Positions 37,753 through 64,000 of a stretch of 64,000 nucleotides of DNA are shown one piece after another. Numbering within the stretch: position 1 is the stretch's first letter; the number at the start of each line of letters is the position of its first letter. A program made the translations under genes and the position numbers. The notes under the pieces were generated by a model. It saw only the letters and a list, made by a program, of their open reading frames with translations. It did not search any database and was not told where the DNA came from. This DNA comes from an uncultured Chlamydiae bacterium. GTDB taxonomy: Bacteria; Chlamydiota; Chlamydiia; Chlamydiales; Parachlamydiaceae. Where the stretch lies: assembly GCA_963754655.1 (NCBI GenBank), contig CAVWGN010000001.1:1856001-1920000 (forward strand), written 5' to 3'.

Positions 37753-39276
37753 TTAACTTGCTATAAGATTGTAGCAGCCGGTTGAGTCAAACTTTTTTAA
37801 GCTTTTGGGAAGCTTGTCCAACGAGGCTATATTAGTGTATCCTACATTAAGCTTTTCTAGCTTTGAAAAAGACTCATCAAGCTTTTGAAAGGATTCTGCC
37901 GTAAGAGACTCGCATCCCTTTAAGTCAAGCTCTTTTAAGCTTTTGGGGAGCTTGTCTAGGGAGGCTATCGAAGTAGATGCTATATTAAGCTTTTCTAGCA
38001 TTGAAAAGGACTCATCAAGCTTTTGAAAGGATTCTGCTGTAAGAAGCCGGCATCTCTCTAAGTCAAGTTCTTTTAAATTTTTGGGGAGCTTGTCTAGGGA
38101 GGCTATTTCAGTCGATCCTACATTAAGCTTTTCTAGCTTTGAAAAGGACTCATCAAGCTTTTGAAAGGATTCTACTATTGTAAGAGCCATGCATTTGTAT
38201 AAGTTAAGCTCTTTTAAGTTTTTGGGGAGCTTGTCCAGGGAGCCTATGTGAGTGCCTCCTACATTAAGCTTTTCTAGCATTGAAAAGGACTCATCAAGCT
38301 TTTGAAAGGATTCTGCCTTAAGAGAATGGCATGCCGTTAAGTTAAGCTCTTTTAAGCTTTTGGGGAGCTTGTCTAGGGAAGCTATGTGAGTAAATGATAC
38401 ATTAAGCTTTTCTAACTTTGAAAAGGACTCATCAAGCTTTTGAAAGGCTTCTGCCGTAAGAGACCTGCATCCTTCTAAGTTAAGCTCTTTTAAGTTTTTG
38501 GGGAGCTTGTCTAGGGAGGCTATGTCAGTCGATCCTACATTAAGCTTTTCTAGCTTTGAAAAAGAAGATAAATCTAATTTCTCTATTGGAGTAGTGCCTA
38601 ATAGAGTCAGGGATCGAAGATTGGGAAATGCTTGTTGTAATCTTCTGAGTTTTTCATTATCTAAGCTTGTAAAATTGGAGAGATCGAGTGTAGTGATTTC
38701 TAGCTTTGAAAAAGAAGATAAATCTAATTTCTCTATTGGAGTAGTGCCCGATAGAGTCAGGGATCGAAGATTGGGACAGGCTTGTTGTAATCTTCTGAGT
38801 TTTTCATTATCTAAGCTTGTAAAATTGGAGAGATCGAGTGTAGTGATTTCTTCTCCAAATTGAAAGATAGCCTCAAATCTTTGCTTAGGAGAAAGGTTAC
38901 TATCTAACAAGTTAAAAGCTATTAATTTTCCCATAATTTGTGAATAGATGTCCATTGAACCCGCTGCCTCAAGCAACTCAGGATAGCGTATATAATGTGG
39001 AGAAGGATTGTCTAAATACTGCATGATTTGCTTCCAAAGATTTTGATCTTCGGGTTGAATCTTAAGTTGTTGAAGTAAGTTTTTAACTTCCTGTGCAGTT
39101 TCTTGTGAAGACAAAGAAAAGGCTGCTTGTCTTAAAAAATCTTGAATAATGAAATTAATTTTTTCTAAATTTTTCGTTTTATGTGAAGAAACCTTCTCAC
39201 TATTATAAGTGTTGATTAATTCCTTAAAAGAAACTTCGATAGACGAAGGTAAATGGTAAGAATGAGTCGGATCCAT
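37753..39276 (-). CDS. Variable LRR protein, array copy 1 (intact)
   Basis: 46-aa/138-bp units KLEKLNVxxTxIASLDKLPKxLKELxLxxCxxLTAExFQKLDESFS; 150-bp cap duplication 38551-38850. Confidence 0.9.
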   Translation of the reverse strand: MDPTHSYHLPSSIEVSFKELINTYNSEKVSSHKTKNLEKINFIIQDFLRQAAFSLSSQETAQEVKNLLQQLKIQPEDQNLWKQIMQYLDNPSPHYIRYPELLEAAGSMDIYSQIMGKLIAFNLLDSNLSPKQRFEAIFQFGEEITTLDLSNFTSLDNEKLRRLQQACPNLRSLTLSGTTPIEKLDLSSFSKLEITTLDLSNFTSLDNEKLRRLQQAFPNLRSLTLLGTTPIEKLDLSSFSKLEKLNVGSTDIASLDKLPKNLKELNLEGCRSLTAEAFQKLDESFSKLEKLNVSFTHIASLDKLPKSLKELNLTACHSLKAESFQKLDESFSMLEKLNVGGTHIGSLDKLPKNLKELNLYKCMALTIVESFQKLDESFSKLEKLNVGSTEIASLDKLPKNLKELDLERCRLLTAESFQKLDESFSMLEKLNIASTSIASLDKLPKSLKELDLKGCESLTAESFQKLDESFSKLEKLNVGYTNIASLDKLPKSLKKFDSTGCYNLIAS

Positions 39277-39353
39277 ATTTTCTTCTCTCTTTTGATTATG
39301 ATTAAAAATTTAATACAATAATTAATAAATAATTTATTATATTTACAAATGCT

Positions 39354-39382
39354 ATTATACAAACTATTTTGATTTTAAGCGA
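39354..39382 (-). promoter_or_regulatory. Putative sigma70/66-type promoter of LRR gene (similar upstream of the other copies)
   Basis: Minus strand TCGCTT-N17-TATAAT about 80 bp upstream of the ATG. Confidence 0.35.
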
Positions 39383-39601
39383 GTACTAAAAACACTTTTT
39401 ATTTAATTGACATTTGCATTAGATTTATTTTCAACTTAAGATTGATTTAATATCAAATGAATTTAGTAAAAAAATTTGATTTGATATTAAATCTATGGAA
39501 ACAGTTTTCCTTCAAAAGGATTTAACTAAATCGATCATAAAAATGAATAAAAATAAAAAAATCCTGCCTTTTGTTGGCATGAAGATGACCGAATTGCCAG
39601 G

Positions 39602-39918
39602 GTGTTTTTACTAAACATATTTGACACTTGCAGCCCTTCAGGCTGCATGACACAACCCGCTCATAACCAGGGCGTTGCTGGTCTATTGCACTTACAGCCT
39701 TTCAGCTGATAGAGAACCTCAGCTTACAATATTAGACCGCAAGTCTCTATATTTTGGACCTTTTTTATAGACAGCACGTCTAAAAGTAAAATAGGAAATT
39801 TCCTGTATTAGCCGGAAGAGCTTTAAGTGCAATAGACTATGGCAACTCCCTGGGTATGAGCGGGTTGTGTCACGCAGCCTGAAGGGCTGCAAGTGTCAAA
39901 TATTTTAGTAAAAAACAC
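39602..39918. repeat. REPIN-like palindrome family B (array unit 1)
   Basis: GTGTTTTTACTAAACATATTTGACACTTGCAGCCCTTCAGGCTGC... and its inverted copy; internal GCCCTTCAGGC motifs. Confidence 0.85.
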
Positions 39919-40593: not shown

Positions 40594-42085
40594 CTTGTCA
40601 TTACCCAAATTTTTCAAAAATTTATTATTTTCATTAACTTTGCACCTTCTACAAGATCTATAAGCCTACTCATGCCAAGCCAAAGGGTCTTTAATCCCGG
40701 CATTCCATCACTTTTTCTGTTAATGTGACCTCCTAGCTTCCCGATCGCTAGCGCTACACATTTAACCGTCTTTATCTTCCTTTTAAGATAGGTTTCAAGG
40801 ACTTTTATTTCAAATTGACTAAGTCCGCTTTCTTTTGCGTCGCCATCAGGATTAGTCCTTAAAGATTCTCTGAGATCTACTAATCTAAGTGCAACAATAC
40901 TCATAATCGCAATTGCAGCAAAAAGTCTATGAGCATTTTCTAATTGAAGATCTTCGGCTCTTAATCCACTTTTAAGAGTTTTATGAAAATCTTCTATCAT
41001 CCAACGTAGCGAATAATATTTTACAATAAGATATGCAGATTCAATATTATTTATGCTTAAAGAAGTATATAAAAACCATTCAATCGTACTGCCATCCTCG
41101 GGATCAACGCCCCAAACATGTACTACAGTCACTTGCAGCGTAGGTAATTCCCCAATACTATAACCGGGCCTTGCAGGAGCCCGTAGGGATACTTCTTGCC
41201 AATTTACATTCAATGAAATCGTTCTTTTTGTTGTTCCATTTCTTCCTCTGCGATCAATTGTAGTAGCTCCTATTGGGGGTAATTCTCTTAATGTTTCAAA
41301 CAAACGAATTTCCCAATCGTTATTATCTACACGATCATGTTTGACTCGGATGATATAATCATATCCAGATGCCTGAGTATCCTGAAGAACTTCGTAAATA
41401 TCTGCATTGCGATCACAGACTCTAATCAATCTATTTTGATTACTCTTTGGAGCCTGGTTTTTAAGCATCTTTGACCACAAATCTGTCTCGAGCCCTTGTT
41501 GTCCGTTTCCTTGTTTATGGGTCTTCTCTCTTTTAGGAGGACGCACATAATATTGTTGAGAGGGCAAACCTAAAATTTTTACACAGGGATCTTTTGAAGA
41601 GGTTTTGTTCCTTATTCCTAAAGCAATAGTAGAATGCAAAATAAATCCTTGATCCCCTTTTCTGCCAGAGCCTACAGGACCCAAACCTTCAATTGGTTCT
41701 TGTCCATTCCATTCAAATTCTGAACTATCTTCGATAAGTAAGATATCGCCATGCCAATTTAACATGTTTTGTGTTGCTAAAGCCCGATGGTTTGATTGAA
41801 TGGTATCAGGTGTCATAACATTTTGATCAAGAAGATTATAGGATGCTTTAATATCATACCACTTTGTATAAAGAGAGGAAAAAAATTGTCCTGGATGCAT
41901 AGCTAGTTTTGTTGCCATATCAACTAATCTCCGCGTCCTCCTTTTATCAAATAGCTGAACTTTCCCAAAGTTTTTATAAGCCCACATGCCTGTATCAAAT
42001 TCATATCGTGTTGTATGCATAAATATCTCCTTTGTTGAAAAACATCTATTATACAACAACCTTGAAAAATTTGGGTAATGACAAG
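40594..42085 (-). mobile_element. IS4-family (IS50/Tn5-like) insertion sequence, intact
   Basis: 24-bp TIR CTTGTCATTACCCAAATTTTTCAA; 9-bp TSD GGCATCGCC (40585-40593, 42086-42094). Confidence 0.95.
40614..42020 (-). CDS. IS4-family transposase
   Basis: DKRRTRRL, IEDSS, VCDRNADIYE, YSLRWMIEDFHKTLKSG (YREK), IGKLGGH..RKSDGMPG; SD before ATG 42020. Confidence 0.95.
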   Translation of the reverse strand: MHTTRYEFDTGMWAYKNFGKVQLFDKRRTRRLVDMATKLAMHPGQFFSSLYTKWYDIKASYNLLDQNVMTPDTIQSNHRALATQNMLNWHGDILLIEDSSEFEWNGQEPIEGLGPVGSGRKGDQGFILHSTIALGIRNKTSSKDPCVKILGLPSQQYYVRPPKREKTHKQGNGQQGLETDLWSKMLKNQAPKSNQNRLIRVCDRNADIYEVLQDTQASGYDYIIRVKHDRVDNNDWEIRLFETLRELPPIGATTIDRRGRNGTTKRTISLNVNWQEVSLRAPARPGYSIGELPTLQVTVVHVWGVDPEDGSTIEWFLYTSLSINNIESAYLIVKYYSLRWMIEDFHKTLKSGLRAEDLQLENAHRLFAAIAIMSIVALRLVDLRESLRTNPDGDAKESGLSQFEIKVLETYLKRKIKTVKCVALAIGKLGGHINRKSDGMPGLKTLWLGMSRLIDLVEGAKLMKIINF

Positions 42086-42571: not shown

Positions 42572-43873
42572 CTATAAAATGATGTGTAAACGATTCCTAA
42601 AAAAGTCTCTTAATTGATTACACCCTTGATTGGTTATATTACAAAAACTTAAGTTTAAAGATTGCAAAGAGGTCAAATCCTTTAAATGCGCAAGTCCTTG
42701 ATCGGTTAGCTTCGTCTGTCTTAAATCTAAAGATTGCAAAGAATTCAAATTCTTTAAATGCGCAAGCCCTTGATTGGTTATATTACAAAAACTTAAGTTT
42801 AAAGATTGCAAAGAGGTCAAATCCTTTAAATGCGCAAGCCCTTGATCGGTTATATCACAAAAACTTAAGTTTAAAGATTGCAAAGAGGTCAAATCCTTTA
42901 AATGCGCAAGCCCTTGATCGGTTATATCACAAGAACATAAGTCTAAAGATTGCAAAGAATTCAAATTCTTTAAATGCGCAAGCCCTTGATCGGTTAGCTT
43001 CGTATGTCTTAAATCTAAAGATTGCAAAGAATTCAAATTCTTTAAATGCGCAAACCCTTGATCGGTTATCTTCTTGCATCCACTTAAATTTAAAGATTGC
43101 AAAGAGGTCAAATTCTTTAAATGCGTAAGCCCTTGATCGGTGATCTGCTGACAATTTTTTAAATTAAGAGAAGTAAGATGAGTCAAGTTTTGGCTCAGTT
43201 TTTTAAGACCTGTATCTGTGATATTGCTATTAATTAAATCTAGACTTTCACAATTGCGGCAATGCTTAAGAACAAGTTGCAGATTAGACTGAGAAGGTTT
43301 TATAAGGGTTAAATTTTGAATCAAACCTCCAATCTGTGCATTCAATACTTGATTGAATGAAGAAAGACGATGGAGGTTAGCTTCGAAAAGCAAGGCGGTA
43401 ATGGGAGGATGAGAAGGAACAGATTTTAAGCTTTTGCAGACGGAACCTATTCCTTGTCTGCTATGAAAAATAATATTTTGCCAAATATCCAAAGGAAGAG
43501 TGTCAAGTGTCAAAAGAGATTCTCCTTCAGTAGCTTTTTTAATTTGAGAATTATCTTGAGACAAAAATTCTTCTTCATCTTCAGCAGAAAAATCTATCTC
43601 GTGTTGATCAACAAAGAGACTCCCAAGATCTGAATCTTGGTTGTGAATGCGATCTGAATCTTGAATGGAATCTGGGTCTTGAATAGGATTGAAAAGTTCT
43701 TTTGCTTTAAAATAAGAAGAGCAATAGGAAAAAGCAGCATAACAAGCTGCTAACAAACCTAAAGCTACAGAGACAATAATTAAAATTTTTTTATTTTGAC
43801 TCGTTAAAGTCGACTTAAACTTATCTATAAGCAAAATAGGACAAAAAGAATTAAAAGCCGGAAAATTAAACAA
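42572..43873 (-). CDS. F-box-like + LRR protein with N-terminal TM segment (Protochlamydia-type effector)
   Basis: TM ILIIVSVALGLLAACYAAF; LDTLPLDIWQNII..VCKSL; 24-25-aa repeats ITDQGLAHLKxLxSLQSLxL. Confidence 0.85.
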   Translation of the reverse strand: MFNFPAFNSFCPILLIDKFKSTLTSQNKKILIIVSVALGLLAACYAAFSYCSSYFKAKELFNPIQDPDSIQDSDRIHNQDSDLGSLFVDQHEIDFSAEDEEEFLSQDNSQIKKATEGESLLTLDTLPLDIWQNIIFHSRQGIGSVCKSLKSVPSHPPITALLFEANLHRLSSFNQVLNAQIGGLIQNLTLIKPSQSNLQLVLKHCRNCESLDLINSNITDTGLKKLSQNLTHLTSLNLKNCQQITDQGLTHLKNLTSLQSLNLSGCKKITDQGFAHLKNLNSLQSLDLRHTKLTDQGLAHLKNLNSLQSLDLCSCDITDQGLAHLKDLTSLQSLNLSFCDITDQGLAHLKDLTSLQSLNLSFCNITNQGLAHLKNLNSLQSLDLRQTKLTDQGLAHLKDLTSLQSLNLSFCNITNQGCNQLRDFFRNRLHIIL

Positions 43874-48610: not shown

Positions 48611-50396
48611 TTAACTTGCTATAAGATTGTAGCAGCCGGTTGAGTCAAACTTTTTAAGCTTTTGGGAAGCTTGTCCAACGAGGCTATATTAGTGTATCCT
48701 ACATTAAGCTTTTCTAGCTTTGAAAAAGACTCATCAAGCTTTTGAAAGGATTCTGCCGTAAGAGACTCGCATCTCTCTAAGTCAAGCTCTTTAAGCTTTT
48801 GGGGGGCTTGTCTAAGGAGGCTATGTCAGTCCCTCTTACATTAAGCTTTTCTAGCATTGAAAAGGACTCATCAAGCTTTTGAAAGGATTCTGCTGTAAGA
48901 AGCCGGCATCTGTCTAAGTCAAGCTCTTTTAAGTTTTTGGGGAGCTTGTCTAGGGAGGCTATGTGAGTCGATCCTAAATCGAGATTTTCTAGCTTTGAAA
49001 AGGACTCATCAAGCTTTTGAAAGGATTCTGCTGTAAGATAATTGCAATACCTTAAGTCAAGCTCTTTTAAGTTTTTGGGGAGCTTGTCTAGAGAGGCTAT
49101 GCGAGTCGATCTTACATTAAGCTTTTCTAGCTTTGAAAAGGACTCATCAAGCTTTTGAAAGGCTTTTGCTGTAAGAGACTCGCCGCCGCATCCCATTAAG
49201 TCAAGCTCTTTTAAGTTTTTGGGGAGCTTGTCTAGGGAGGCTATGCGAGTCGAGCCTACATTAAGCTTTTCTAGCTTTGAAAAGGACTCATCAAGCTTTT
49301 GAAAGGACTTTGCTGTAAGAGACTTGCATACCCTTAAGTCAAGCTCTTTTAAGCTTTTGGGGAGCTTGTCTAGGGAGGCTATGCGAGTCGATCTTACATT
49401 AAGCTTTTCTAGCCTTGAAAAAGACTCATCAAGCTTTTGAAAGGATTCTGCTGTAAGAGACTTGCATTCGGCTAAGTCAAGCTCTTTTAAGCTTTTGGGG
49501 AGCTTGTCTAGGGAGGCTATGCGAGTCGAGCCTACATTAAGCTTTTCTAGCATTGGAAAAGACTCATCAAGCTTTTGAAAGGATTCTGCTGTAAGAGTGC
49601 ATCTCTTTAAGTCAAGCTCTTTTAAGTTGTTGGGGAGCTTGTCTAGGGAGGCTATGTAAGTCCTTCTTACATTAAGCTTTTCTAGCTTTGGAAAAGACTC
49701 ATCAAGCTTCTGAAAAGCTTCTGCTGTAAGATAATAGCAGCGCGCTAAGTTAAGCTCTTTTAAGCTTTTGGGGAGCTTGTCTAGGGATGCTATGTCAGTC
49801 GATTCTACACTAAGCTTTTCTAGGTTTGAAAAAGAGGATAAATCTAATTTCTCTATTGGAGTAGTGCCTGATAAAGTCAGAGATCGAAGATTGGGACAGG
49901 CTTGTTGTAATCTTCTGAGTTTTTCATTATCTAAGCTTGTAAAATCAGGAAGATCGAGTGTATTGATTTCTTCTCCAAATTGCAGGGCAGCCTCAAATGT
50001 TTGCTCAGGAGAAGGGTTACTATCTAACAACTCAAAAGCTATTACTTTTCCCATCATTTGTGAATAGATGTCCATTGAACCCGCTGCCTCAAGCAGCTCA
50101 GGGTAGCGAATATCATGTGGAGAAGGATTGTCTAAATACTGCATGATTTGCTTCCAAAGATTTTGATCTTCGGGTTGAATCTTAAGTTGTTGAAGTAAGT
50201 TTTTAACTTCCTGTGCAGTTTCTTGTGAAGGCAAAGAAAAGGCTGCTTGTCTTAAAAAATCTTGAATAATAAGATTAATTTTTTTTAAATTTTTCGTTTT
50301 ATCTGAAGAAACCTTTTCATTATTATAAGTGTTGATTAATTCCTTAAAAGAAACTTCGATAGACGAAGGTAAATGGTAAGAATGATTCGGATCCAT
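48611..50396 (-). pseudogene. Variable LRR protein, array copy 2 (ORF ends 48777 by frameshift; homologous end at 48611)
   Basis: Single-T deletions near 48790 and 48651 relative to copies 1 and 5; may be real or homopolymer errors. Confidence 0.8.
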
Positions 50397-52240: not shown

Positions 52241-52246
52241 GTTGAG

Positions 52247-53536
52247 TCAAACTTTTTTAAGCTTTTCTAGCTTTGAAAAGGACTCATTAAGCTTTTGAAA
52301 GGATTCTGCTGTAAGAAGCCGGCATCTCTCTAAATCAAGCTCTTTTAAGTTTTTGGGGAGCTTGTCTAGGGAGGCTATGTCAGTAAATCCTAAATTAAGC
52401 TTTTCTAGCTTTGAAAAGGACTCATCAAGCTTTTGAAAGGCTTCTGCTGTAAGATAATTGCAATAGCTTAAGTCAAGCTCTTTTAAGTTTTTGGGGAGCT
52501 TGTCTAGAGAGGCTATGTTAGTCGATTTTACATTAAGCTTTTCTAGCTTTGAAAAGGACTCATCAAGCTTTTGAAAGGCTTCTGCCGTAAGAGACGACCT
52601 GCATCCTTCTAAGTTAAGCTCTTTTAAGTTTTTGGGGAGCTTGTCCAGGGAGGTTATATTAGTGAATCCTACATTAAGCTTTTCTAGCTTTGAAAAGGAC
52701 TCATCAAGCTTCTGAAAAGCTTCTGCTGTAAGAGACTTGCATACCATTAAGTTGAGCTCTTTTAAGTTTTTGGGGAGCTTGTCTAGGGAGGTTATATTAG
52801 TGAATCCTACATTAAGCTTTTCTAGCTTTGGAAAGGACTCATCAAGCTTTTGAAAGGATTCTGCTGTAAGAGACTCGCATCCGGCTAAGTTAAGCTCTTT
52901 TAAGTTTTTGGGGAGCTTTTCTAGGGAGGTTATGTTAGTCGATTCTACATTAAGCTTTTCTAGGTTTGAAAAAGAGGATAAATCTAATTTCTCTATTGGA
53001 GTAGTGCCTGATAAAGTCAGAGATCGAAGATTGGGACAGGCTTGTTGTAATCTTCTGAGTTTTTCATTATCTAAGCTTGTAAAATCAGGAAGATCGAGTG
53101 TATTGATTTCTTCTCCAAATTGCAGGGCAGCCTCAAATGTTTGCTCAGGAGAAGGGTTACTATCTAACAACTCAAAAGCTATTACTTTTCCCATCATTTG
53201 CGAATAGATGTCCATTGAACCCGCTGCCTCAAGCAACTCAGGATAGCGAATATCATGTGGAGAAGGATTGTCTAAATACTGCATGATTTGATTCCAAAGA
53301 TTTTGATCTTCGGGTTGAATGTTAAGTTGTTGAAGTAAGTTTTTAACTTCCTGTGCATTTTCTTGTGAAGGCAAAGAAAAGGCTGCTTGTCTTAAAAAAT
53401 CTTGAATAATAAGATTAATTTTTTCTAAATTTTTCGTTTTATCTGAAGAAACCTTCTCACTATTATAAGTGTTGATTAATTCCTTAAAAGAAACTTCGAT
53501 AGACGAAGGTAAATGGTAAGAATGACTCGGATCCAT
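52247..53536 (-). CDS. Variable LRR protein, array copy 3 (C-terminally truncated)
   Basis: Same units; a 50-bp deletion between TTAAGCTTTT repeats removes the terminal cap. Confidence 0.85.
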   Translation of the reverse strand: MDPSHSYHLPSSIEVSFKELINTYNSEKVSSDKTKNLEKINLIIQDFLRQAAFSLPSQENAQEVKNLLQQLNIQPEDQNLWNQIMQYLDNPSPHDIRYPELLEAAGSMDIYSQMMGKVIAFELLDSNPSPEQTFEAALQFGEEINTLDLPDFTSLDNEKLRRLQQACPNLRSLTLSGTTPIEKLDLSSFSNLEKLNVESTNITSLEKLPKNLKELNLAGCESLTAESFQKLDESFPKLEKLNVGFTNITSLDKLPKNLKELNLMVCKSLTAEAFQKLDESFSKLEKLNVGFTNITSLDKLPKNLKELNLEGCRSSLTAEAFQKLDESFSKLEKLNVKSTNIASLDKLPKNLKELDLSYCNYLTAEAFQKLDESFSKLEKLNLGFTDIASLDKLPKNLKELDLERCRLLTAESFQKLNESFSKLEKLKKV

Positions 53537-54149: not shown

Positions 54150-54532
54150 TGATTGTTCAACTTCTTCATGAAAATTATTTTTGGTGAATTGAATAATTTC
54201 CAAAGCTTTTTTGGAACTTTCTCTTTCTCTTAAACTTTTATAGCCAATTTGAAGATGATCCTGAAATTTGACCTCAGACACTTTAACGCTTTTTTGAACG
54301 ATAGAATTTAATAAATCATCCATGACTTGCACATTCCGCTTTGGTAATGGAAAAAGAGTGCTTCCATGGCTTCCTATTCTCGCTTCTCCTATTTGGCATA
54401 AAATGTTCATGAGCAAAATATGCAGTTAGTGCTTGCAATTGATCCCATTTAAACAGGACCTTTAATATTTTCAAGGCTAGTACTCTAACTTTTCTCTCAG
54501 TAAGGCTTTTTTTAAAGAAATCGGTGCTTGAA

Positions 54533-57171
54533 TTAACTTGCTATAAGATTGTAGCAGCCGGTTGAGTCAAACTTTTTTAAGCTTTTGGGAAGCTTGTCCA
54601 ACGAGGCTATATTAGTGAATCCTACATTAAGCTTTTCTAGCTTTGAAAAAGACTCATCAAGCTTTTGAAAGGATTCTTCTGTAAGAGCCATGCAGTTAAC
54701 TAAGTCAAGCTCTTTTAAGTTTTTGGGGAGCTTGTCTAGTGATGCTATGTGAGTCGATCCTACATTAAGCTTTTCTAGCTTTATGAAAAAGACTCATCAA
54801 GCTTTTGAATGGATTCTGTTTTAAGGGAATGCAACCGATAGAGAGGTCAAAATGGATTTAACTAAATTATATTGCAGTGTAGATGATTTTTGGAAGTCAT
54901 TTAAACAAGAATGGGATAAGCATTTGATTGATAATGGCAAAACAAAGCGAGGGCCTGAACCAGAATTATCAATTCCAGAGATGATGACAATTGTGATTTT
55001 ATTTCATCAATCGAATTATCGAACATTTAAATATTTTTATGACTACGTTTGTAAGTATTTACGAAGAGATTTTCCAAAATTAATTAGCTATAGCCGTTTT
55101 GTTTATTTAATGAAGAATTTATTTATTCCATTATTTGCCTACCTTTTAGAGAGAAGAGGAGAGATAACAGGAATTGCTTTTATTGATTCTACATCTCTAG
55201 ATGTTTGCCATAATAAACGCATTAAAAGAAATAAAGTTTTCAAAGGTTTAGCCAAACGTGGAAAAACGACCTCTGGATGGTTCTATGGATTTAAATTACA
55301 TTTGATTATTAATGAGAAAGGAGAAATTTTAGCCTTTCAGCTGACTCCTGGGAATATTGCGGATGTATCTGTTGCTGAAACGTTATCAAAAGGAATTTTT
55401 GGAAAGTTATTCGGTGACAAAGGATATATTTCGGCAGAACTTGCAAAAACAGCTTTTAAAACAAGGACTTGAGTTGTTTACAACTATAAGATCAAATATG
55501 AAGCAAAAGCTCATGAAGTTAACAGATAGAATTCTTCTTAGAAAACGAGCAATAATTGAAACAGTAAATGATCAATTAAAAAATATTTCTCAAATTGAAC
55601 ATACACGTCATAGAAGTGCTGGAAACTTTTTGATCAATCTATTAGCTGGTATTGTAGCTTATACTCATCAGCAAAAAAAGCCATCTATAAATTTAGCTGA
55701 GCAAGATCGTATGTTATTAATGGCTGCATAAAAAACCCAAAACTCAGGTTACATTAAGCTTTTCTAGCTTTGAAAAAGACTCATCAAGCTTTTGAATGGA
55801 TTCTGTTGTAAGAGACCTGCATCCGAGTAAGCTAAGCTCTTTTAAGTTTTTGGGGAGCTTGTCTAGTGATGCTATGTTAGTCAATCCTACATTAAGCTTT
55901 TCTAGCTTTGAAAAAGACTCATCAAGCTTTTGAAATGATTCTGCCGTAAGAGAATTGCAATACGATAAGTCAAGCTTTTTTAAGCTTTTGGGGAGCTTGT
56001 CTAAGGAAGTTATGTCTGTTGATCTTCTTACATTAAGCTTTTCTAGCTTTGAAAAAGACTCATCAAGCTTTTGAAAGGATTGTGCTGTAAGAAGCTGGCA
56101 TCTTTCTAAGTCAAGCTCTTTTAAGCTTTTGGGGAGCTTGTCTAGGGAGGTTATATTAGTGAATCCTACATTAAGCTTTTCTAGCTTTGAAAAGGACTCA
56201 TCAAGTTTTTGAAAGGATTCTGTTGTAAGAGAATAGCATTTCGCTAAGTTAAGTTCTTTTAAGTTTTTGGGGAGCTTGTCTAGGGAGGCTATGTCAGTCG
56301 ATCCTACATTAAGCTTTTCTAGCTTTGAAAAAGACTCATCAAGCTTTTGAAGGGATTCTGCCGTAAGAGACCTGCATAAGTTTAAGTTAAGCTCTTTTAA
56401 GTTTTTGGGGAGCTTGTCTAGGGAGGCTATGTCAGTCGATCCTACATAAAGCTTTTCTAGCTTTGAAAAAGACTCATCAAGCTTTTGAAAGGATTCTGCC
56501 GTAAGAGACCTGCATAAGTTTAAGTTAAGCTCTTTTAAGTTTTTGGGGAGCTTGTCTAGGGAGGCTATATTAGTTAATTCTACATTAAGCTTTTCTAGCT
56601 TTGAAAAAAAGGATAAATCTAATTTCTCTATTGGAGTAGTGCCTGATAAAGTCAGAGATCGAAGATTGGGACAGGCTTGTTGTAATCTTCTGAGTTTTTC
56701 ATTATCTAAGCTTGTAAAATCAGGAAGATTGAGTGTATTGATTTCTTCTCCAAATTGCAGGGCAGCCTCAAATGTTTGCTCAGGAGAAGGGTTACTATCT
56801 AACAACTCAAAAGCTATTACTTTTCCCATCATTTGCGAATAGATGTCCATTGAACCCGCTGCCTCAAGCAACTCAGGATAGCGAATATCATGTGGAGAAG
56901 GATTGTCTAAATACTGCATGATTTGCTTCCAAAGATTTTGATCTTCGGGTTGAATCTTAAGTTGTTGAAGTAAGTTTTTAACTTCCTGTGCAGTTTCTTG
57001 TGAAGGCAAAGAAAAGGCTGCTTGTCTTAAAAAATCTTGAATAATAAGATTAATTTTTTTTAAATTTTTCGTTTTATCTGAAGAAACCTTTTCATTATTA
57101 TAAGTGTTGATTAATTCCTTAAAAGAAACTTCGATAGACGAAGGTAAATGGTAAGAATGATTCGGATCCAT
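54533..57171 (-). pseudogene. Variable LRR protein, array copy 4, interrupted by IS982
   Basis: ORF 55744..57171; remainder (VGSTH..LVNCMA..VGFTN..CYNLIAS*) at 54533-54820. Confidence 0.9.
54821..55749 (+). mobile_element. IS982-family element, frameshifted transposase (54852..55472 / 55357..55731)
   Basis: [40 protein letters not shown]; right end AACTCAGGT; extra A near 55447; left TIR not recognisable. Confidence 0.9.
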
Positions 57172-57494
57172 ATTTTCTTCTCTCTTTTGATTATGATTAA
57201 AAATTTAATAAAATAATTAATAAATAATTTATTATGTTTACAAATGCTATTATACAAACTATTTTAATTTTTAAGCGAGTATTAAAAACAATTTTTATTT
57301 AGTTGACATTTGTATTAGATTTATTTTCAACTTGAGATTGATTTAATATCAAATGAATTTAGTAAAAAAATTTGATTTGATATTAAATCTATGGAAACAG
57401 TTTTTCCTTCAAAAATATTTAACTAAATCGATCATAAAAATGAATAAAAACAAAAAATCCTGCCTTTTGTTGGCATGAAGATGATCCGAATTGC

Positions 57495-57786
57495 CAGGGT
57501 GTTTTTACTAAACATATTTGACACTTGCAGCCCTTTAGGCTGCATGACACAACCCGCTCATAACCGAGGCGTTGTTCTAGTCTATTGCACTTACAGCCTT
57601 TCAGGCTGATAAAGAACCTCAGCTATAATATTAGACCACAAGTCTAAAAGTACAATAGGAAATTCCCTGCATTAGCCTGAAGGGCTTTAAGTGCAATAGA
57701 CCAGGGTAACTCCGTGGTTATAAGCCGTTTGTGTCATGTAGCCTGAAGAGCTGCAAGTATCAAATATGTTTAGTAAAAACACCCTG
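57495..57786. repeat. REPIN-like palindrome family B (unit 4)
   Basis: As unit 2. Confidence 0.85.
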
Positions 57787-57799
57787 ATTGAATTGCTTT

Positions 57800-58293
57800 T
57801 TATTGAATTTCTTGAAAGAAATCTTTGATCTTTGCTTCACATTCTTCTTTTGACATATATCCTACAAGGCGGGAAACAACTTTTCCTTTATACATTAAGA
57901 TAGTTGTCGGATAGGCTTTGACCTTTAAAAAGTTGACTAATAACGTCTCTTCATCAGCATCAATTTTAGCAAATTGGCATTCTTTCTTATATTTTTCATG
58001 TAATGTTTCAAAAATGGGAGCAAAATATCTACAAGGACGACACCAGTCTGCATAGACATCAATAATGAAGGCCTTGTCTGATTGTTCAACTTCTTCATGA
58101 AAATTATTTTTGGTGAATTGAATAATTTCCAAAGCTTTTTGGAACTATCTCTTTCTCTTAAACTTTCATAGCCAATTTAAAGATGATCCTGAAATTTGAC
58201 CTCAGACACTTTAACACTTTTTTGAACGATAGAATTTAATAAATCATCCATGACTTGCACATTCGCTTTGGTAATGGAAAAAGAGTGCTTCAT
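57800..58293 (-). pseudogene. Thioredoxin (WCRPC) with disrupted N-terminal extension
   Basis: Trx domain 57800..58132; upstream MKHSFSITKANVQVMDD... has an in-frame TAA and a frameshift. Confidence 0.75.
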
Positions 58294-58435
58294 ATCCTTT
58301 ATTTTTCACAATAATCAAAGCCTAAAGTAGTATTATTTATTTGAATATTAAAAAGATAATGATAAAATATTTATGTGATTAGAATTGCTATTTTTTGTAC
58401 AAAATTAACACCCTAAACCCACGGTAAAGCTTCGA

Positions 58436-59063
58436 TTAAATTTTTAAATCATTTAAAATAATCTTGAATCCGTTTTCAGACCTATCAGCCATAGGATTTG
58501 TTAAAAGATCGCTTAAGTTATCCCATTTATCTGCTAATTTAATTTGAGCAGCTCCTGCTGATTTATAAGGAGCTGTCATAATTTGGAGCTTTTTGCGCTC
58601 CTCTTTAGGAAGAGTTTTATCATCTGTCACTTCTTGTACAAAAGCAGTTATTCGCTCTCCGAATAAATCTAGAAGTTCTTGATAAGAAGTTTTCAGTATC
58701 TTCCAATGTATCATGGAGTAAACCTGCGATAATGATAGAGGGATCTCGAATGCTTCCTACCGTGACCAAGTGATGCGCGACTGAAAGAGGATGGACGACA
58801 TAAGGTGTTTGTGCCTCATCTTTGCGCACTTGCTTGTGATGTTTATGAGCAGCAAATTCGACTGCTTTTAGACTGAGACGTACATCTTCTTCAATCCAAC
58901 CTTTCCCTCTTTCATAAACAACCATTAAAACCTTTTGAAATTGAATAGACTTTTCTTGTATCTGAAAGACAGGAGGGCCAAAATATTCTTTCACAACCTC
59001 ATCTAACCTTTTAAAATGCTGCTGTATTCTTTGAAGAGTAGAGGGATGGGGACGAATAAGCAT
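58436..59063 (-). pseudogene. HD hydrolase pseudogene
   Basis: Same +T frameshift (GAAGTTTTCAG) and altered 3' end as the 51662 copy. Confidence 0.9.
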
Positions 59064-59406
59064 ACACCTCTATTAAAACGACTTGCTTTTTAGCATGCTC
59101 AAGAAGCTATGGCTTTCCCAACTTTTTTGGTACTTATCTTCTCGCCATAGGCATTCCTATTTTTATAATAAATTTTTCATATAAACGAAATAGAGAAAAA
59201 TAAATAAATCATTTATGAGCAAAAATATCCGCCGCTTCCATGGCTTCCTATTCTCGCTTCTCCTATCTGGCATAAAACGTTCATGAGCAAAATATGCAGT
59301 TAGTGCTTGCAATTGATCCCATTTAAACAGGACCTTTAATATTTTCAAGGCTAGTACTCTAACTTTTCTCTCAGTAAGGCTTTTTTTAAAGAAATCGGTG
59401 CTTGAA

Positions 59407-61200
59407 TTAACTTGCTATAAGATTGTAGCAGCCGGTTGAGTCAAACTTTTTTAAGCTTTTGGGAAGCTTGTCCAACGAGGCTATATTAGTGTATCCTACA
59501 TCAAGCTTTTCTAGCTTTGAAAAAGACTCATCAAGCTTTTGAAAGGATTCTGCCGTAAGAGACTCGCATCTCTGTAAGTCAAGCTCTTTTAAGCTTTTGG
59601 GGAGCTTGTCTAAGGAGGCTATATCACTGAATCCTACATTAAGCTTTTCTAGCATTGAAAAGGACTCATCAAGCTTTTGAAAGGCTTCTGCTGTAAGAAG
59701 CCAGCATCTCTCTAAGTCAAGCTCTTTTAAGCTTTTGGGGAGCTTGTCTAGGGAGGCTATTCCAGTGAATCCTACATCAAGCTTTTCTAGCTTTGAAAAG
59801 GACTCATCAAGCTTTTGAAAGGACTCTAAGGAATCTATTGTAAGATCCGTGCATTTATATAAGTTAAGCTCTTTTAAGTTTTTGGGGAGCTTGTCTAGGG
59901 AGCCTATGTGAGTCGATCCTAAATCGAGCTTTTCTAGCTTTGAAAAGGACTCATCAAGCTTTTGAAAGGATTCTGCTGTAAGATAATTGCAATACCTTAA
60001 GTCAAGCTCTTTTAAGTTTTTAGGGAGCTTGTCTAGGGAGATTATATTAGTGTATCCTACATTAAGCTTTTCTAGCTTTGAAAAGGACTCATCAAGCTTT
60101 TGAAAGGATTCTGCCGTAAGAGACTCGCATCTCTCTAAGTCAAGCTCTTTTAAGTTGTTGGGGAGCTTGTCTAGGGAGGCTATGTGAGTAAATCCTAAAC
60201 TAAGCTTTTCTAGCTTTGGAAAAGACTCATCAAGCTTCTGAAAAGCTTCTGCTGTAAGATATGTGCATCCGGCTAAGTTAAGTTCTTTTAAGTTGTTGGG
60301 GAGCTTGTCTAGGGAGGTTATGTTAGTCGAGCCTACATTAAGCTTTTCTAGCATTGAAAAGGACTCATCAAGCTTTTGAAAGGATTCTGCCTTAAGAGAA
60401 TGGCATGCCGTTAAGTCAAGCTCTTTTAAGTTGTTGGGGAGCTTGTCTAGGGAGGCTATGTAAGTAAATCCTAAATTAAGCTTTTCTAGCTTTGGAAAAG
60501 ACTCATCAAGCTTTTGAAAGGATTCTGCTGTAAGATAATAGCAGCGCGCTAAGTTAAGCTCTTTTAAGCTTTTGGGGAGCTTGTCTAGGGATGCTATGTC
60601 AGTCGATTCTACACTAAGCTTTTCTAGGTTTGAAAAAGAGGATAAATCTAATTTCTCTATTGGAGTAGTGCCTGATAAAGTCAGAGATCGAAGATTGGGA
60701 CAGGCTTGTTGTAATCTTCTGAGTTTTTCATTATCTAAGCTTGTAAAATCAGGAAGATCGAGTGTAGTGATTTCTTCTCCAAATTGCAGGGCAGCCTCAA
60801 ATGTTTGCTCAGGAGAAGGGTTACTATCTAACAACTCAAAAGCTATTACTTTTCCCATAATTTGTGAATAGATGTCCATTGAACCCGCTGCCTCAAGCAA
60901 CTCAGGATAGCGAATATCATGTGGAGAAGGATTGTCTAAATACTGCATGATTTGATTCCAAAGATTTTGATCTTCGGGTTGAATCTTAAGTTGTTGAAGT
61001 AAGTTTTTAACTTCCTGTGCAGTTTCTTGTGAAGGCAAAGAAAAGGCTGCTTGTCTTAAAAAATCTTGAATAATAAGATTAATTTTTTCTAACTTTTTCG
61101 TTTTATCTGAAAAAACCTTCTCATTATTATAAGTGTTGATTAATTCCTTAAAAGAAACTTCGATAGACGAAGGTAAATGGTAAGAATGATTCGGGTCCAT
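59407..61200 (-). CDS. Variable LRR protein, array copy 5 (intact, 597 aa)
   Basis: Eight Cys-containing repeats, full C-cap KKFDSTGCYNLIAS. Confidence 0.9.
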   Translation of the reverse strand: MDPNHSYHLPSSIEVSFKELINTYNNEKVFSDKTKKLEKINLIIQDFLRQAAFSLPSQETAQEVKNLLQQLKIQPEDQNLWNQIMQYLDNPSPHDIRYPELLEAAGSMDIYSQIMGKVIAFELLDSNPSPEQTFEAALQFGEEITTLDLPDFTSLDNEKLRRLQQACPNLRSLTLSGTTPIEKLDLSSFSNLEKLSVESTDIASLDKLPKSLKELNLARCYYLTAESFQKLDESFPKLEKLNLGFTYIASLDKLPNNLKELDLTACHSLKAESFQKLDESFSMLEKLNVGSTNITSLDKLPNNLKELNLAGCTYLTAEAFQKLDESFPKLEKLSLGFTHIASLDKLPNNLKELDLERCESLTAESFQKLDESFSKLEKLNVGYTNIISLDKLPKNLKELDLRYCNYLTAESFQKLDESFSKLEKLDLGSTHIGSLDKLPKNLKELNLYKCTDLTIDSLESFQKLDESFSKLEKLDVGFTGIASLDKLPKSLKELDLERCWLLTAEAFQKLDESFSMLEKLNVGFSDIASLDKLPKSLKELDLQRCESLTAESFQKLDESFSKLEKLDVGYTNIASLDKLPKSLKKFDSTGCYNLIAS

Positions 61201-61524
61201 ATTTTCTTCTCTCTTTTGATTATGATTAAAAATTTAATACAATAATTAATAAATAATTTATTATGTTTACAAATGCTATTATACAAACTATTTTAATTTT
61301 TAAGCGAGTACTAAAGACATTTTTTATTTAATTGACATTTGTATTAGATTTAATTTCAACTTGAGATTGATTTAATATCAATCAATTTAATAAAAAAATT
61401 GATTCGATATTAAATCTATGGAAGGAAATAGTTTTTCTTTCAAAAAAGTTTATCTAAATTGATCATAAAAATGAACAAAAATAAAAAATGCTGTCTTTTG
61501 TTAGCATAAAGATGACCGAATTGC

Positions 61525-61814
61525 CAGGGTGTTTTTACTAAACATATTTGACACTTGCAGCCCTTCAGGCTGTATGACACAAGCCACTCATAACCAAGGC
61601 GTTATCTTAGTCTATTGCACTTACAGCCTTTCAGGCTGATAGAGAACCTCAGCTTACAATATTAGACCGCAAGTCTAAAAGTAAAATAGGAAGTTCCCTG
61701 CATTAGCCTGAAGGGCTTTAAGTGCAATATACCAGGACAACGCCCTGGGTATGAGTGGGTTGTGTCACGCAGCCTGAAGGGCTGCAAGTGTCAAATATTT
61801 TTAGTAAAAAACAC
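61525..61814. repeat. REPIN-like palindrome family B (unit 5), followed by deleted trx remnant
   Basis: As units 1 and 3. Confidence 0.85.
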
Positions 61815-62140
61815 TGATTGTTCAACTTCTTCATGAAAATTATTTTTGGTGAATTGAATAATTTCCAAAGCTTTTTTGGAACTATCTCTTTCTCTTAAAC
61901 TTTCATAGCCAATTTGAAGATGATCCTGAAATTTGACCTCAGACACTTTAACGCTTTTTTGAACGATAGAATTTAATAAATCATCCATGACTTGCACATT
62001 CCGCTTTGGTAATGGAAAAAGAGTGCTTCCATGGCTTCCTATTCTCGCTTCTCCTATCTGGCATAAAATGTTCATGAGCAAAATATGCAGTTAGTGCAAT
62101 TGATCCCATTTAAATAGGACCTTTAATATTTTCAAGGCTA

Positions 62141-62979
62141 GGGAGCGTACCTAAAAGATTTAAAATAATAACTATTATGATTTATAATTTTCTCTGATAA
62201 AACAAGGGGGAAATTTGAATGAGTAGGATAGTATTAACTAATGAAAGATGGATAAAAATAAAACCTTTATTGCCAAAAGAACGAGGATATTGGGGCAGAC
62301 CAAGTCGGCCTCATCGTAAGATTTTAGAAGGCATTATTTGGATTTTAAGAACAGGAGCCGCTTGGAGGGATCTACCACCCAAGTATGGTCCTTGGAGCAC
62401 ATGTTATAATCGCTTTAATCATGGACAAAGGCTGGAATCTGGCAAACGATTTGGCAAGCTTTAAAAGATGAAATTGACGAAGAAAATTACTCTGTAGACA
62501 GCTCAATTGTTGAAGCGCATCAAGATGCTTGTAGGATAAAAAAAAAGCCGAAGAAGTCATGGGAAAATCAAGGGCCGGAACAACCACAAAAATTCATGCA
62601 GTAACAGATGGATTAGGTCGTTGTATTGATTTTATCTTGACAGAAGGTCAAGTACACGAGAGCACTCAAATGAAGCTTTTACTCAGTGGAAAAAGTCCAC
62701 AAAATGTTATAGCTGATAAAGCTTACGACTCAAATGAAATCAGAAATTTTATAGAAAAGATGGGAAGTCAAGCAGTCATACCCAGCAAAGTATCAAGAGC
62801 TGAACTAATTGAACATGATAAACATATCTACAGAGAGCGTTGCTTGGTAGAAAATTTTTTTCAGTTTATAAAACGATTTAGGCGTATTAAAATAAGATAC
62901 GAAATGAAAGCTCAAAATTATGCAGGAATGTTGACGATCGCTTGTATTATACAATGGTTAATCTTTTAGGTACGCTCCC
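62141..62979 (+). mobile_element. IS5-family copy 2 (extra 1-bp deletion in ORF A)
   Basis: Same TIRs; inserted in CTAG with TA duplication; AATCATGG versus AATCGATGG near 62420. Confidence 0.95.
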
Positions 62980-63033
62980 TAGTACTCTAACTTTTCTCTC
63001 AGTAAGGCTTTTTTAAAGAAATCGGTGCTTGAA

Positions 63034-64000
63034 TTAACTTGCTATAAGATTGTAGCAGCCGGTTGGGTCAAACTTTTTTAAGCTTTTGGGAAGCTTGTCC
63101 AACGAGGCTATATTAGTGTATCCTACATTAAGCTTTTCTAGCTTTGAAAAAGACTCATCAAGCTTTTGAAAGGATTCTGCCGTAAGAGACTCGCATCTCT
63201 CTAAGTCAAGCTCTTTTAAGCTTTTGGGGAGCTTGTCTAAGGAGGTTATATTAGTGAATCCTACATTAAGCTTTTCTAGCTTTGAAAAGGACTCATCAAG
63301 CTTTTGAAAGGATTCTGCTGTAAGAAGCCGGCATCTGTCTAAGTCAAGCTCTTTTAAGTTTTTGGGGAGCTTGTCTAGGGAGGCTAGGCGAGTCGATCCT
63401 AAATTGAGCTTTTTTAAGTTTTTGGGGAGCTTGTCTAGGGAGGCTATGTGAGTCGATCCTAAATCGAGCTTTTCTAGCTTTGAAAAGGACTCATCAAGCT
63501 TTTGAAAGGATTCTGCTGTAAGATAATTGCAATACCTTAAGTCAAGCTCTTTTAAGTTTTTGGGGAGCTTGTCTAGGGAGATTATATTAGTGAATCCTAC
63601 ATTAAGCTTTTCTAGCTTTGAAAAGGACTCATCAAGTTTTTGAAAGGATTCTGCCGTAAGAGACTTGCATCTCTCTAAGTCAAGCTCTTTTAAGCTTTTG
63701 GGGAGCTTGTCTAGGGAGGCTATATGAGTCGATGCTAAATCGAGCTTTTCTAGCTTTGGAAAGGACTCATCAAGCTTTTGAAAGAATTCTGCTGTAAGAG
63801 ACTTGCATCCGGCTAAGTCAAGCTCTTTTAAGTTGTTGGGGAGCTTGTCTAGGGAGGTTATATTAGTGAATCCTACATTAAGCTTTTCTAGCTTTGAAAA
63901 GGACTCATCAAGCTTTTGAAAGAATTCTGCTGTAAGAGACTTGCATCCGGCTAAGTCAAGCTCTTTTAAGTTGTTGGGGAGCTTGTCTAGGGAGGTTATG
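63034..64000 (-). CDS. Variable LRR protein, array copy 6 (3' part; start beyond window)
   Basis: Manual reading: LAGCKS, LAGCKS, LERCKS, LRYCNY, LDRCRL, LERCES modules, ending CYNLIAS* at 63034. Confidence 0.85.
   Translation of the reverse strand, partial: ITSLDKLPNNLKELDLAGCKSLTAEFFQKLDESFSKLEKLNVGFTNITSLDKLPNNLKELDLAGCKSLTAEFFQKLDESFPKLEKLDLASTHIASLDKLPKSLKELDLERCKSLTAESFQKLDESFSKLEKLNVGFTNIISLDKLPKNLKELDLRYCNYLTAESFQKLDESFSKLEKLDLGSTHIASLDKLPKNLKKLNLGSTRLASLDKLPKNLKELDLDRCRLLTAESFQKLDESFSKLEKLNVGFTNITSLDKLPKSLKELDLERCESLTAESFQKLDESFSKLEKLNVGYTNIASLDKLPKSLKKFDPTGCYNLIAS

Follow-up and report, generated by a model that had tools for sequence, protein, structure and literature searches.

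An apparently young tandem array of LRR genes with hypervariable loop codons in an uncultured Parachlamydiaceae bacterium

The genes described here appear to represent a young, lineage-specific tandem amplification of a single LRR gene in an amoeba-associated, Parachlamydiaceae-like intracellular bacterium. They were identified in a 64,000-nt stretch of DNA, referred to here as the window, from an uncultured Chlamydiae bacterium (Parachlamydiaceae; assembly GCA_963754655.1, contig CAVWGN010000001.1, positions 1,856,001-1,920,000). The interpretation favoured, to which a probability of roughly 0.6 is attached, is that a recently amplified family has diversified at loop codons of its repeats, and that its products would be binders injected into the host.

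The genome carries eight paralogs, six of them inside the window. They share the minus strand and lie within 35 kb; these copy numbers derive from one assembly of one strain. In a tblastn search of the genome with the paralog N-terminus, all eight matches fell inside C1:1894707-1928756, and the two further copies, G7 and G8, are located just beyond the end of the window. An earlier interpretation, the sequence-only reading, had described a tandem array of at least six LRR genes. The six minus-strand ORFs bear out that number, but the array is interrupted by insertion sequences, an unrelated LRR gene and gene fragments (Table 1). The unrelated LRR gene lies, with nested IS elements, in the 9.5 kb gap between G1 and G2.

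Table 1. Positions of the LRR paralogs and associated elements in the window
Feature	Position	Strand	Description
Full-length HD_4 gene	36705..37409	-	SpoT-hydrolase-like; edge of array
G1, LRR paralog	37753..39276	-	507 aa, 5 full units and C-cap; Pfam LRR_4 E=1.3e-26
IS4/Tn5-type transposase	40614..42059	-	
Second IS4/Tn5-type copy	45219-46390		Split by IS5-type element at 44409-45251
G2	48643..50396	-	ORF 48777-50396, 539 aa, 7 full units; frameshift near 3' end
G3	52247..53536	-	429 aa, 5 units; 3' deletion adjoining HD_4 gene remnant (51846-52250)
Severed LRR remnant	54425..54851	-	Beyond IS; one unit and cap, frameshifted
IS982-type transposase	54852..55731	+	Two overlapping ORFs, DDE_Tnp_1_3 E=2.1e-48; separates G4 from remnant
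G4	55744..57171	-	475 aa, 6 units; terminates at IS982-type element
Module spacer	57172..59406	-	Conserved upstream DNA (about 620 bp) and two gene fragments; copies behind other paralogs, 88-99% identity
MITE-like palindromic element	57495..57786	.	Upstream of G4; 116-nt arms, 85% complementary
Thioredoxin fragment	57800-58132		Inside spacer 57172..59406
HD_4 fragment	58620-59063		Inside spacer 57172..59406
G5	59407..61200	-	Intact, 597 aa, 8 full units and C-cap; copy used for structure model
IS5-type element	62138..62983	+	Between G5 and G6; 99% identical to 44409-45253
G6	63034..64000+	-	Intact, 568 aa, extends to 64740 outside window; C-cap present

Each paralog opens with an N-terminus of 190 aa, whose identity across seven copies is 91-100%, and continues with 5-8 units of 138 bp, which were detected as arrays in every gene by TRF (matches of 84-90%). 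Both features had been predicted from the sequence. The constant cap that was expected to follow the units is present in G1, G5 and G6 only; the other three in-window genes are frameshifted (G2), deleted (G3) or interrupted by an IS (G4). Together with a 3' deletion in G7, damage to the 3' end thus affects four of the eight copies. The G2 frameshift occurs approximately 1.5 units ahead of the cap, and the unit remainder and cap are found in other frames at 48643-48776. The severed remnant beyond the IS982-type element is apparently the 3' end of G4. Two paralogs show further individual features: in G1 the N-terminal LRR cap contains an internal tandem duplication of 150 bp (38547-38851), and G6 has an additional 20-aa half unit beside its 7 units.

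The amplified module is 3-4 kb in length, repeats at 88-99% identity, and brings along fragments of passenger genes as well as IS elements. The array spacers contain pieces of thioredoxin and HD-domain genes, and the full-length HD_4 gene at the edge of the array is the source of the truncated HD_4 copies within it. Upstream DNA of 410-620 bp is common to all eight copies. MITE-like copies precede other paralogs as well (39598-39914, 50720-51011, 53861-54145 and 61525-61810), and partial copies of this element occur at several dozen further sites in the genome. Among G1-G7 the N-termini differ by a dS of 0.01-0.11; comparisons with G8 give 0.16-0.22. Unequal recombination probably multiplied the module, comprising the LRR gene, the 620-bp upstream region and the thioredoxin- and HD-domain gene pieces, until eight copies were present. 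Four of these have since been damaged by inserted IS elements, by deletions or by a frameshift, in what appears to be birth-and-death evolution.

It is very improbable that extra or chimeric copies were created by mis-assembly of the repeats. In favour of an artefact, the region is highly repetitive and the one sequencing run found covers none of the LRR arrays, but each copy can be told apart by features of its own, be it an IS insertion, the junction of a deletion, a frameshift, a duplicated internal segment or the order of its units, the N-termini differ by 1-10% between copies, and the genome is assembled in 2 contigs.

The units were parsed into 54 segments, 46 of them full and 37 exactly 46 aa long. 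Each unit is a 46-residue double repeat, in which a 20-residue YopM-like LRR is joined to a 26-residue cysteine-containing LRR. Alignment of the units and calculation of per-codon entropy revealed that variation is concentrated at seven codons (8, 9, 11, 28, 29, 31 and 32), corresponding to positions 7, 8 and 10(/11) of each LRR, rather than being evenly spread. Amino-acid entropy is 1.4-3.0 bits at these positions and 0 at 23 of the 46 unit positions, and per-nucleotide divergence is 0.456 in the hypervariable codons vs 0.065 in the remainder of the unit. Between the neighbouring units G7u4 and G7u5, for example, 16 of the 21 nt of the hypervariable codons have changed, against 2 of 117 nt elsewhere; among the 34 unit pairs with no more than 3 differences per 117 scaffold nt, hypervariable pN is 0.40. 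The dipeptides listed in the sequence-only reading agree with the ORFs, and its clustering of in-frame indels at variable positions was confirmed, as six of seven adjoin hypervariable codons. Its statement that the scaffold is nearly identical even at synonymous sites requires some qualification: the units are close to identical there, but not fully so (pS 0.10, dS 0.11).

The units of a single-copy homolog from a same-genus genome vary at most non-core positions, and the scaffold of the window family is therefore not intrinsically constrained. This bears on the alternative that the amplified gene is merely degenerating, so that variation marks only the loop residues under least constraint and diversity as such was never selected. 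Such neutral decay is unlikely. It would accommodate the truncated, frameshifted or IS-disrupted state of four of the eight copies and an N-terminal omega of 0.48, both of which fit partial decay, as well as the IS-rich surroundings and the borderline within-codon statistics described below. Positions 4, 14, 15, 17, 24 and 39, however, are free in the outgroup homolog and invariant or nearly so here, and open frames of 379-597 aa have been kept in all eight copies. Furthermore, neutral sites cannot outpace synonymous ones, and hypervariable dN is 0.79 vs a scaffold dS of 0.11 and N-terminal dS values of 0.05-0.2.

Tree counts put the nonsynonymous rate at the hypervariable codons at 3.7-6.6 times that of synonymous change in the scaffold, and the maximum-likelihood codon rate was 8.3-fold higher at hypervariable positions (tree lengths 23.8 vs 2.87). 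Within the hypervariable codons, dN/dS was 1.70 by NG86 and 1.42-1.53 by parsimony counts (binomial p=0.065 and 0.015). The GY94 omega at these codons was 1.73 (vs 0.71), with a likelihood-ratio test against omega=1 that was borderline (2dlnL=4.27, p=0.039). This within-codon evidence rests on trees of 138-nt units that recombine, which weakens it. The within-codon test is also weakened by raised synonymous change at the same codons: pairs with the same residue used different codons in 19.4% of cases, vs 6.9% elsewhere, and synonymous changes per synonymous site were 4.4-6.3 vs 1.5-1.7. The diversifying selection proposed earlier is thus partly supported, by sites that outpace synonymous change and by a dN/dS of 1.4-1.7, but tempered by the borderline within-codon result and the synonymous excess. 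To judge from the sequences, the substitutions at the seven codons have most likely been retained by diversifying selection, and local mutation bias or older alleles could be contributing.

A stronger form of the mutational idea, that the loop codons owe their variation to a raised local mutation rate or to templated micro-conversion and that selection was minor, appears quite unlikely. The synonymous excess just described and the clustering of indels in the same loops are what it would predict, but part of that excess is an artefact of pathway averaging over multi-nucleotide codon differences, and no donor template array was seen. The hypervariable substitutions involve all bases and all three codon positions, without adenine specificity, and no PF00078 (RVT_1) match was found in the genome, for which marker genes indicate 96.7% completeness (the control was positive in 3 of 14 genomes). 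A target of a diversity-generating retroelement would be expected to have a reverse transcriptase and a template repeat nearby and to change specifically at adenines; with neither the enzyme in the genome nor a bias towards adenines, the locus was rejected as such a target.

There is, in addition, evidence of exchange among units. The 46 units carry 25 first-half and 31 second-half signatures in 42 distinct combinations, a single second-half signature may be joined to as many as 3-4 first halves, and 81 of 190 site pairs failed the four-gamete test. Diversity in the array probably arises from retained substitutions, small in-frame loop indels, and the gain, loss and exchange of units and half-units between paralogs. 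Antigenic-variation loci of the vls/pilS type have one expression site and promoterless partial cassettes. That type of locus was rejected, as all eight copies share the same N-terminus start and upstream 410-620 bp; because each has its own N-terminus and upstream DNA, no copy is a promoterless cassette. Programmed repertoire switching, in which intact copies would receive cassettes by recombination from damaged donors and so vary within the population, is regarded as very improbable. The unit and half-unit recombinations shared between paralogs are compatible with it, as is one low-depth soil-metagenome contig with a mosaic junction absent from the genome (best ungapped match 160/168 nt), but this contig was assembled from short reads across a repeat and could be a chimera. 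The 620 bp upstream are the same in all copies, and neither a recombinase nor a specific signal sequence was found. It is also very unlikely, in our estimation, that the array is a self-shuffling library, in which the near-identity of the scaffold allows units and half-units to recombine between intact and damaged paralogs so frequently that the population carries many binding specificities simultaneously. If true, this would constitute a recombination-driven repertoire of injected binders, resembling antigenic-variation loci but host-targeted.

Pfam LRR_4 was matched in four of five window paralogs tested at E=5.8e-21 to 5.4e-32, and in G4 at 6.8e-16. The G5 model (pLDDT 81.5, pTM 0.73) contains a helical N-domain (residues 11-143) and an LRR solenoid from residue 146, with residues 1-7 modelled as disordered. 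The LRR superfamily is defined by tandem LxxLxLxx(N/C/T)xL motifs that LRR profiles recognise and that fold into a solenoid of beta-strands and loops; the profile matches and the strands, spaced regularly at 20 and 26 residues in the model, place the family there, and the top Foldseek matches were all LRR solenoids. Within the unit, the model has beta-strands at positions 4-6 and 24-26 and a helix at 35-44, and the hypervariable residues therefore fall in strand-to-loop segments. The protein would thus combine a helical N-terminal domain with a solenoid of double repeats whose core is nearly constant, and positions 7, 8 and 10(/11) are predicted to line up in a stripe at the concave sheet's edge. 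In the model the variable residues lie 2-6 residues past each strand and, judged from secondary structure and repeat geometry, probably on the sheet's flank. The earlier placement of the variable sites on the LRR binding face is consistent with a stripe just after the strands, but in the model the stripe is on the flank, outside the strands themselves.

Plant NLR/RLP clusters and lamprey VLRs have a conserved core with hypervariable exposed positions around LxxLxL, and unequal recombination within the cluster. They belong to another kingdom and differ in domain make-up, the window family having neither NB-ARC nor somatic assembly, and their variable residues alternate within the strand, whereas those of the window family come after it. 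The likeness would be one of evolutionary mode and pattern, not of homology.

The nearest named LRRs are the type III effectors YopM, SspH1 and XopAE, and also FBXL2, at scores far below family cut-offs (XopAE, 67.9 bits vs a 600-bit cut-off). The best solved-structure sequence matches were YopM (6.7e-11) and SspH1 (1.5e-05). YopM is variable in repeat number, and the 20-residue LRR of YopM and IpaH/SspH, with its 'L..LP' tail, resembles the first half-unit; in the window family, however, it alternates with 26-residue repeats, and no NEL or other C-terminal domain follows. Pfam detected no NEL E3-ligase domain, and the proteins end 16 residues past the last LRR motif, so that an IpaH/SspH-type effector, which would require a ligase domain after the LRRs, was rejected. 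An F-box-LRR effector (NEX1a, GALA) was likewise rejected by sequence: no F-box family matched the 190-aa N-terminus at E<=1, and none of 36 genome matches to PF12937 (F-box) is at the LRR locus. An F-box match below threshold (E=0.015; 15.7 vs 20.5 bits) occurs in P0009, a distant relative, in a segment of which the window family lacks approximately 25 residues. At the level of structure, where an F-box would be a three-helix fold able to bind Skp1, the N-terminal model (pLDDT 72) had no Foldseek match at E<=0.001; VIA-align returned generic helical bundles only (residues 5-95, Z<=9.3), residues 96-143 being barely covered. No transmembrane segment was found in the LRR proteins (maximum hydropathy 0.93), and the genome contains one SctV (754 bits). 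The proteins may be delivered into the amoebal host, probably via the type III system, and the variable stripe of each paralog would recognise a partner of its own, a protein of the host or of a competitor.

LRR expansions in Parachlamydiaceae have been published previously (Domman et al. 2014, PMC4209131). The NEX1 and PEX1 families described there are likewise lineage-specific LRR families of the same bacterial family, often in tandem and variable in repeat number, and are presented as host-interaction effectors without homologs outside the group. They carry F-box, RING/U-box or BTB domains, whereas no F-box was found here, and have 45-64% identity and a global dN/dS of 0.29-0.63, with no positive selection detected; the window paralogs differ in their 91-100% identical N-termini and in divergence confined to seven codons per unit. 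Domman et al. report only purifying selection in the large chlamydial LRR families, and a very small window for catching the early phase of diversification. The present locus appears to sit in that phase, with paralog dS of 0.01-0.2 and seven loop codons per repeat near saturation. What is new is an unusually young member among the known Parachlamydiaceae LRR expansions.

The Ralstonia GALA type III effectors, as portrayed by Kajava et al. (2008, PMC2244805), also have near-perfect, recently multiplied LRRs of the cysteine-containing type, and codon tests by repeat indicate positively selected surface positions; they differ in having an F-box, 24-residue repeats, selected sites on the convex helical side and dispersed genes. 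The lgr genes of the amoeba symbiont Protochlamydia amoebophila (Eugster et al. 2007, PMC2216083) resemble the array in recent serial duplication, LRR growth by adjacent concatenation and an absence of homologs elsewhere. They are large, GC-rich, dispersed genes with 28-residue RI-like repeats, and the abstract reports no localised hypervariability.

The array offers a natural experiment on the birth of a repeat-protein binder family and on which positions set specificity, and its eight existing variants could be assayed for binding to amoebal proteins. Its layout, a constant scaffold with variable loops, is similar to that of engineered repeat binders.

A tandem array of at least six LRR genes had been proposed in the sequence-only reading. 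Six paralogs (G1-G6) do lie wholly or partly in the window and two more (G7 and G8) were found just outside it, all on the minus strand, in a genome of 3.16 Mb in two contigs. When the whole genome was searched by tblastn with the 190-aa N-terminus, eight matches of 77-100% identity were obtained, all inside one 35-kb stretch. Arrays of the 138-bp unit were found in each paralog by Tandem Repeats Finder; units at 76-100% identity were confined to this locus, and LRRs at 30-41% identity occur in eight further loci of the genome.

Features of the LRR paralog locus and its surroundings, in window numbering
Feature	Position	Strand	Remarks
HD_4, SpoT-hydrolase-like gene	36705-37409		full length; one array end
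G1 LRR paralog	37753-39276	minus	ORF
Duplication in G1	38547-38851		150 bp, tandem
Palindrome copy	39598-39914		
IS4/Tn5-type transposase, one copy	40614-42059		
Unrelated LRR gene	42572-43873		433 aa
IS5-type element	44409-45251		
IS4/Tn5-type transposase, second copy	45219-46390		
Two ORFs	46585-48280	plus	103 aa and 439 aa
G2 LRR paralog	48777-50396	minus	ORF
Palindrome copy	50720-51011		
G3 LRR paralog	52247-53536	minus	ORF
Palindrome copy	53861-54145		
G4 LRR paralog	55744-57171	minus	ORF
Palindromic element	57495-57786		292 bp; 116-nt arms, 85% complementarity
G5 LRR paralog	59407-61200	minus	ORF
Palindrome copy	61525-61810		
G6 LRR paralog	63034 onward, to 64740 outside window	minus	ORF
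G7 LRR paralog	66281-67582	minus	outside window
Thioredoxin-domain gene	69215-70063		full length; other array end; outside window
G8 LRR paralog	71656-72795	minus	more divergent; outside window

Open frames of 379-597 aa are retained in all eight copies. A constant cap had been described after the units of each gene, but the shared C-terminal cap is kept in G1, G5 and G6 only. G2 carries a frameshift approximately 1.5 units ahead of the cap, the 3′ ends of G3 and G7 are deletions running into HD_4 remnants, G4 ends against an IS982-type element, on whose far side one more unit and the cap survive as an LRR remnant, and G8 has an ending of its own. The tandem duplication in G1 (2.0 copies, 97% matches) is present in that gene alone, covers the N-terminal LRR cap and adds 50 residues.

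The spacers are 88-99% identical between modules, and each consists of approximately 620 bp 5′ of the gene, including the palindrome, followed by one thioredoxin and one HD_4 fragment. Together with the full-length HD_4 and thioredoxin-domain genes at the two ends, this is the pattern expected once a 3-4 kb module has been amplified in tandem by unequal recombination. IS4-, IS5- and IS982-type elements are inserted within and between modules. One copy of the palindrome lies upstream of each LRR paralog; with matches to its ends at several dozen further genomic sites, it resembles a MITE.

A total of 54 unit segments were parsed, of which 46 are full units and 37 have exactly 46 residues. The unit comprises a 20-residue LRR (positions 2-21) and a 26-residue cysteine-containing LRR (positions 22-46 plus 1). 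This alternation of YopM-like and cysteine-containing repeats was observed in all units, in the single-copy homolog of a same-genus genome (L002:1486-2964) and in three proteins from the representative library (P0006, P0008 and P0009); it is thus common to a wider family rather than restricted to the locus.

It is apparent that variation within the unit is concentrated in seven codons, in agreement with the invariant scaffold and hypervariable positions first described. Of the 46 positions, 23 had an amino-acid entropy of 0, and values of 1.4-3.0 bits were obtained at positions 8, 9, 11, 28, 29, 31 and 32. Over all 666 pairs of 37 units, per-nucleotide divergence was 0.456 in the 21 hypervariable nt, compared with 0.065 in the remaining 117. 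Even the neighbouring units 4 and 5 of G7 differ at 16 of 21 nt in the hypervariable codons, as against 2 of 117 elsewhere. In-frame indels had likewise been said to cluster at or near the variable positions, and six of seven adjoin hypervariable codons.

In the AlphaFold model of G5 (pLDDT 81.5, pTM 0.73), the unit has two strands, at positions 4-6 and 24-26, and one helix, at 35-44. The seven positions, equivalent to 7, 8 and 10(/11) in canonical LRR numbering, sit in the segment leaving the strand. Since consecutive solenoid repeats lie one upon another with equivalent positions in line, the hypervariable residues are predicted to run as a stripe along one border of the concave sheet. The top sequence matches among solved structures were YopM (6.7e-11), FBXL2 (6.8e-09) and SspH1 (1.5e-05); in NCBIfam, XopAE, GogB and SspH2 were matched weakly at the LRR level, far under their cut-offs.

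Nei-Gojobori estimates for the hypervariable codons were pS 0.346, pN 0.487 and omega 1.70, and for 32 scaffold codons dS 0.111, dN 0.019 and omega 0.17. Parsimony counts on two trees gave omega of 1.42 (binomial p=0.065) and 1.53 (p=0.015) for the former and 0.46-0.47 for other codons, with hypervariable nonsynonymous rates 3.7 and 6.6 times the scaffold synonymous rate. Under GY94 with fixed topology, omega was 1.73 (tree length 23.8) at the hypervariable codons and 0.71 (tree length 2.87) in the comparison set; fixing omega at 1 for the hypervariable codons gave 2dlnL=4.27 (p=0.039). Omega values of 1.42-1.73 lean towards the diversifying selection originally suggested, but their significance is borderline, and the trees were built on recombining 138-nt units. 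A further caveat on these tests is that same-residue pairs use different codons in 19.4% of cases at hypervariable codons and 6.9% elsewhere.

N-terminal dS is 0.01-0.11 among G1-G7 (pooled omega 0.48) and 0.16-0.22 to G8. By these low values the paralogs are young, and over the same period the seven codons have evolved at several times the rate of neutral sites. The L002 homolog (492 aa) is 42% identical over N-terminal residues 8-93 and has the same 46-residue unit; since most positions outside the core differ between its units, the uniform scaffold in the window reflects recency, not constraint. Concerted evolution of G8 relative to the rest was considered and rejected: its scaffold dS (0.16-0.17) approximates its N-terminal dS, so there is no sign of homogenisation beyond gene age.

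Among the 46 units, 25 different first-half signatures and 31 different second-half signatures were counted, in 42 distinct combinations; one and the same second-half signature is joined to different first halves in different paralogs. G6 contains, in addition, a half unit of 20 residues. Of 190 site pairs, 81 were incompatible by the four-gamete test, and a PHI-like neighbour-incompatibility test detected no distance effect inside the 138-nt unit (p=0.66). A low-depth soil-metagenome contig of 168 nt (60418-60585) shows 10 differences, eight of which turn the first-half signature of G5 unit 2 into the G1 type, while its flanks remain G5-like. This mosaic junction, absent from the present genome, is a weak hint of shuffling, since chimeras can arise where repeats are assembled from short reads. 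A diversity-generating retroelement was rejected: changes affect all bases and all codon positions, and RVT_1 had no match in the genome (the control was matched in 3 of 14 genomes).

The N-terminal domain is modelled as helical, with helices between residues 11 and 143. It matched no Pfam family, had no usable match in the ESM Atlas and none in Foldseek at E<=0.001, and VIA-align returned generic helical bundles only. All four matches in a word-indexed search of 5.8 billion proteins were this genome's own; one of 40 relatives' genomes gave a match, and a genome-contig scan found one locus, the sole outside record, in Parachlamydiaceae. HMMER yielded six matches among 1.84 billion representatives, of which P0006, P0008 and P0009 share the architecture, and P0005 (583 aa) and P0007 (1475 aa) match a repeated helical motif only. 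Profile positions 45-110 recur as 5 and 7 tandem stretches in the latter two, which are unrelated large proteins, and may represent a widespread helical repeat motif. The three distant same-architecture proteins and L002 carry approximately 25 extra residues ahead of the LRRs, absent from the window family, which in one distant protein gave a sub-threshold F-box match (E=0.015). F-box-like matches number 36 in the genome and 0 in the G1-G8 locus. As a lead, the window family may have descended from F-box-LRR proteins.

Tandem LRR expansions of Parachlamydiaceae are already known (PMC4209131), and the passages cited here take them as host-interaction effectors (PMC4209131, PMC3991601). Given these readings, a type III export gate encoded in the genome, proteins with no transmembrane segment and an N-terminus whose sole outside genome record is in Parachlamydiaceae, the paralogs would most likely be secreted into the amoeba, where different paralogs would bind different targets. 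For Ralstonia GALA effectors, repeat-level positive selection is reported in the cited passage (PMC2244805). The present family appears, from the comparisons made, to be private to one lineage, without an F-box and unusually early in its diversification. The literature search found no paper on hypervariable LRRs in Parachlamydiaceae or on this locus.

Of three runs from a single soil-metagenome study, one contained part of the stretch (share 0.12); it provided 41 short contigs over IS elements and spacers, and none over the LRR arrays. The IS5-type element is nested in the second IS4/Tn5-type transposase copy, and its empty site, with 44408 joined to 45251, was seen in one soil-metagenome contig. 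The unrelated LRR gene is built of another type of LRR, present as 7.2 copies of a 72-bp repeat, and its first 200 residues matched no Pfam family. The 103-aa and 439-aa ORFs, between the IS remnants and G2, had no family match in Pfam or NCBIfam; they are spanned by a 1.9-kb soil-run contig with approximately 10 differences.
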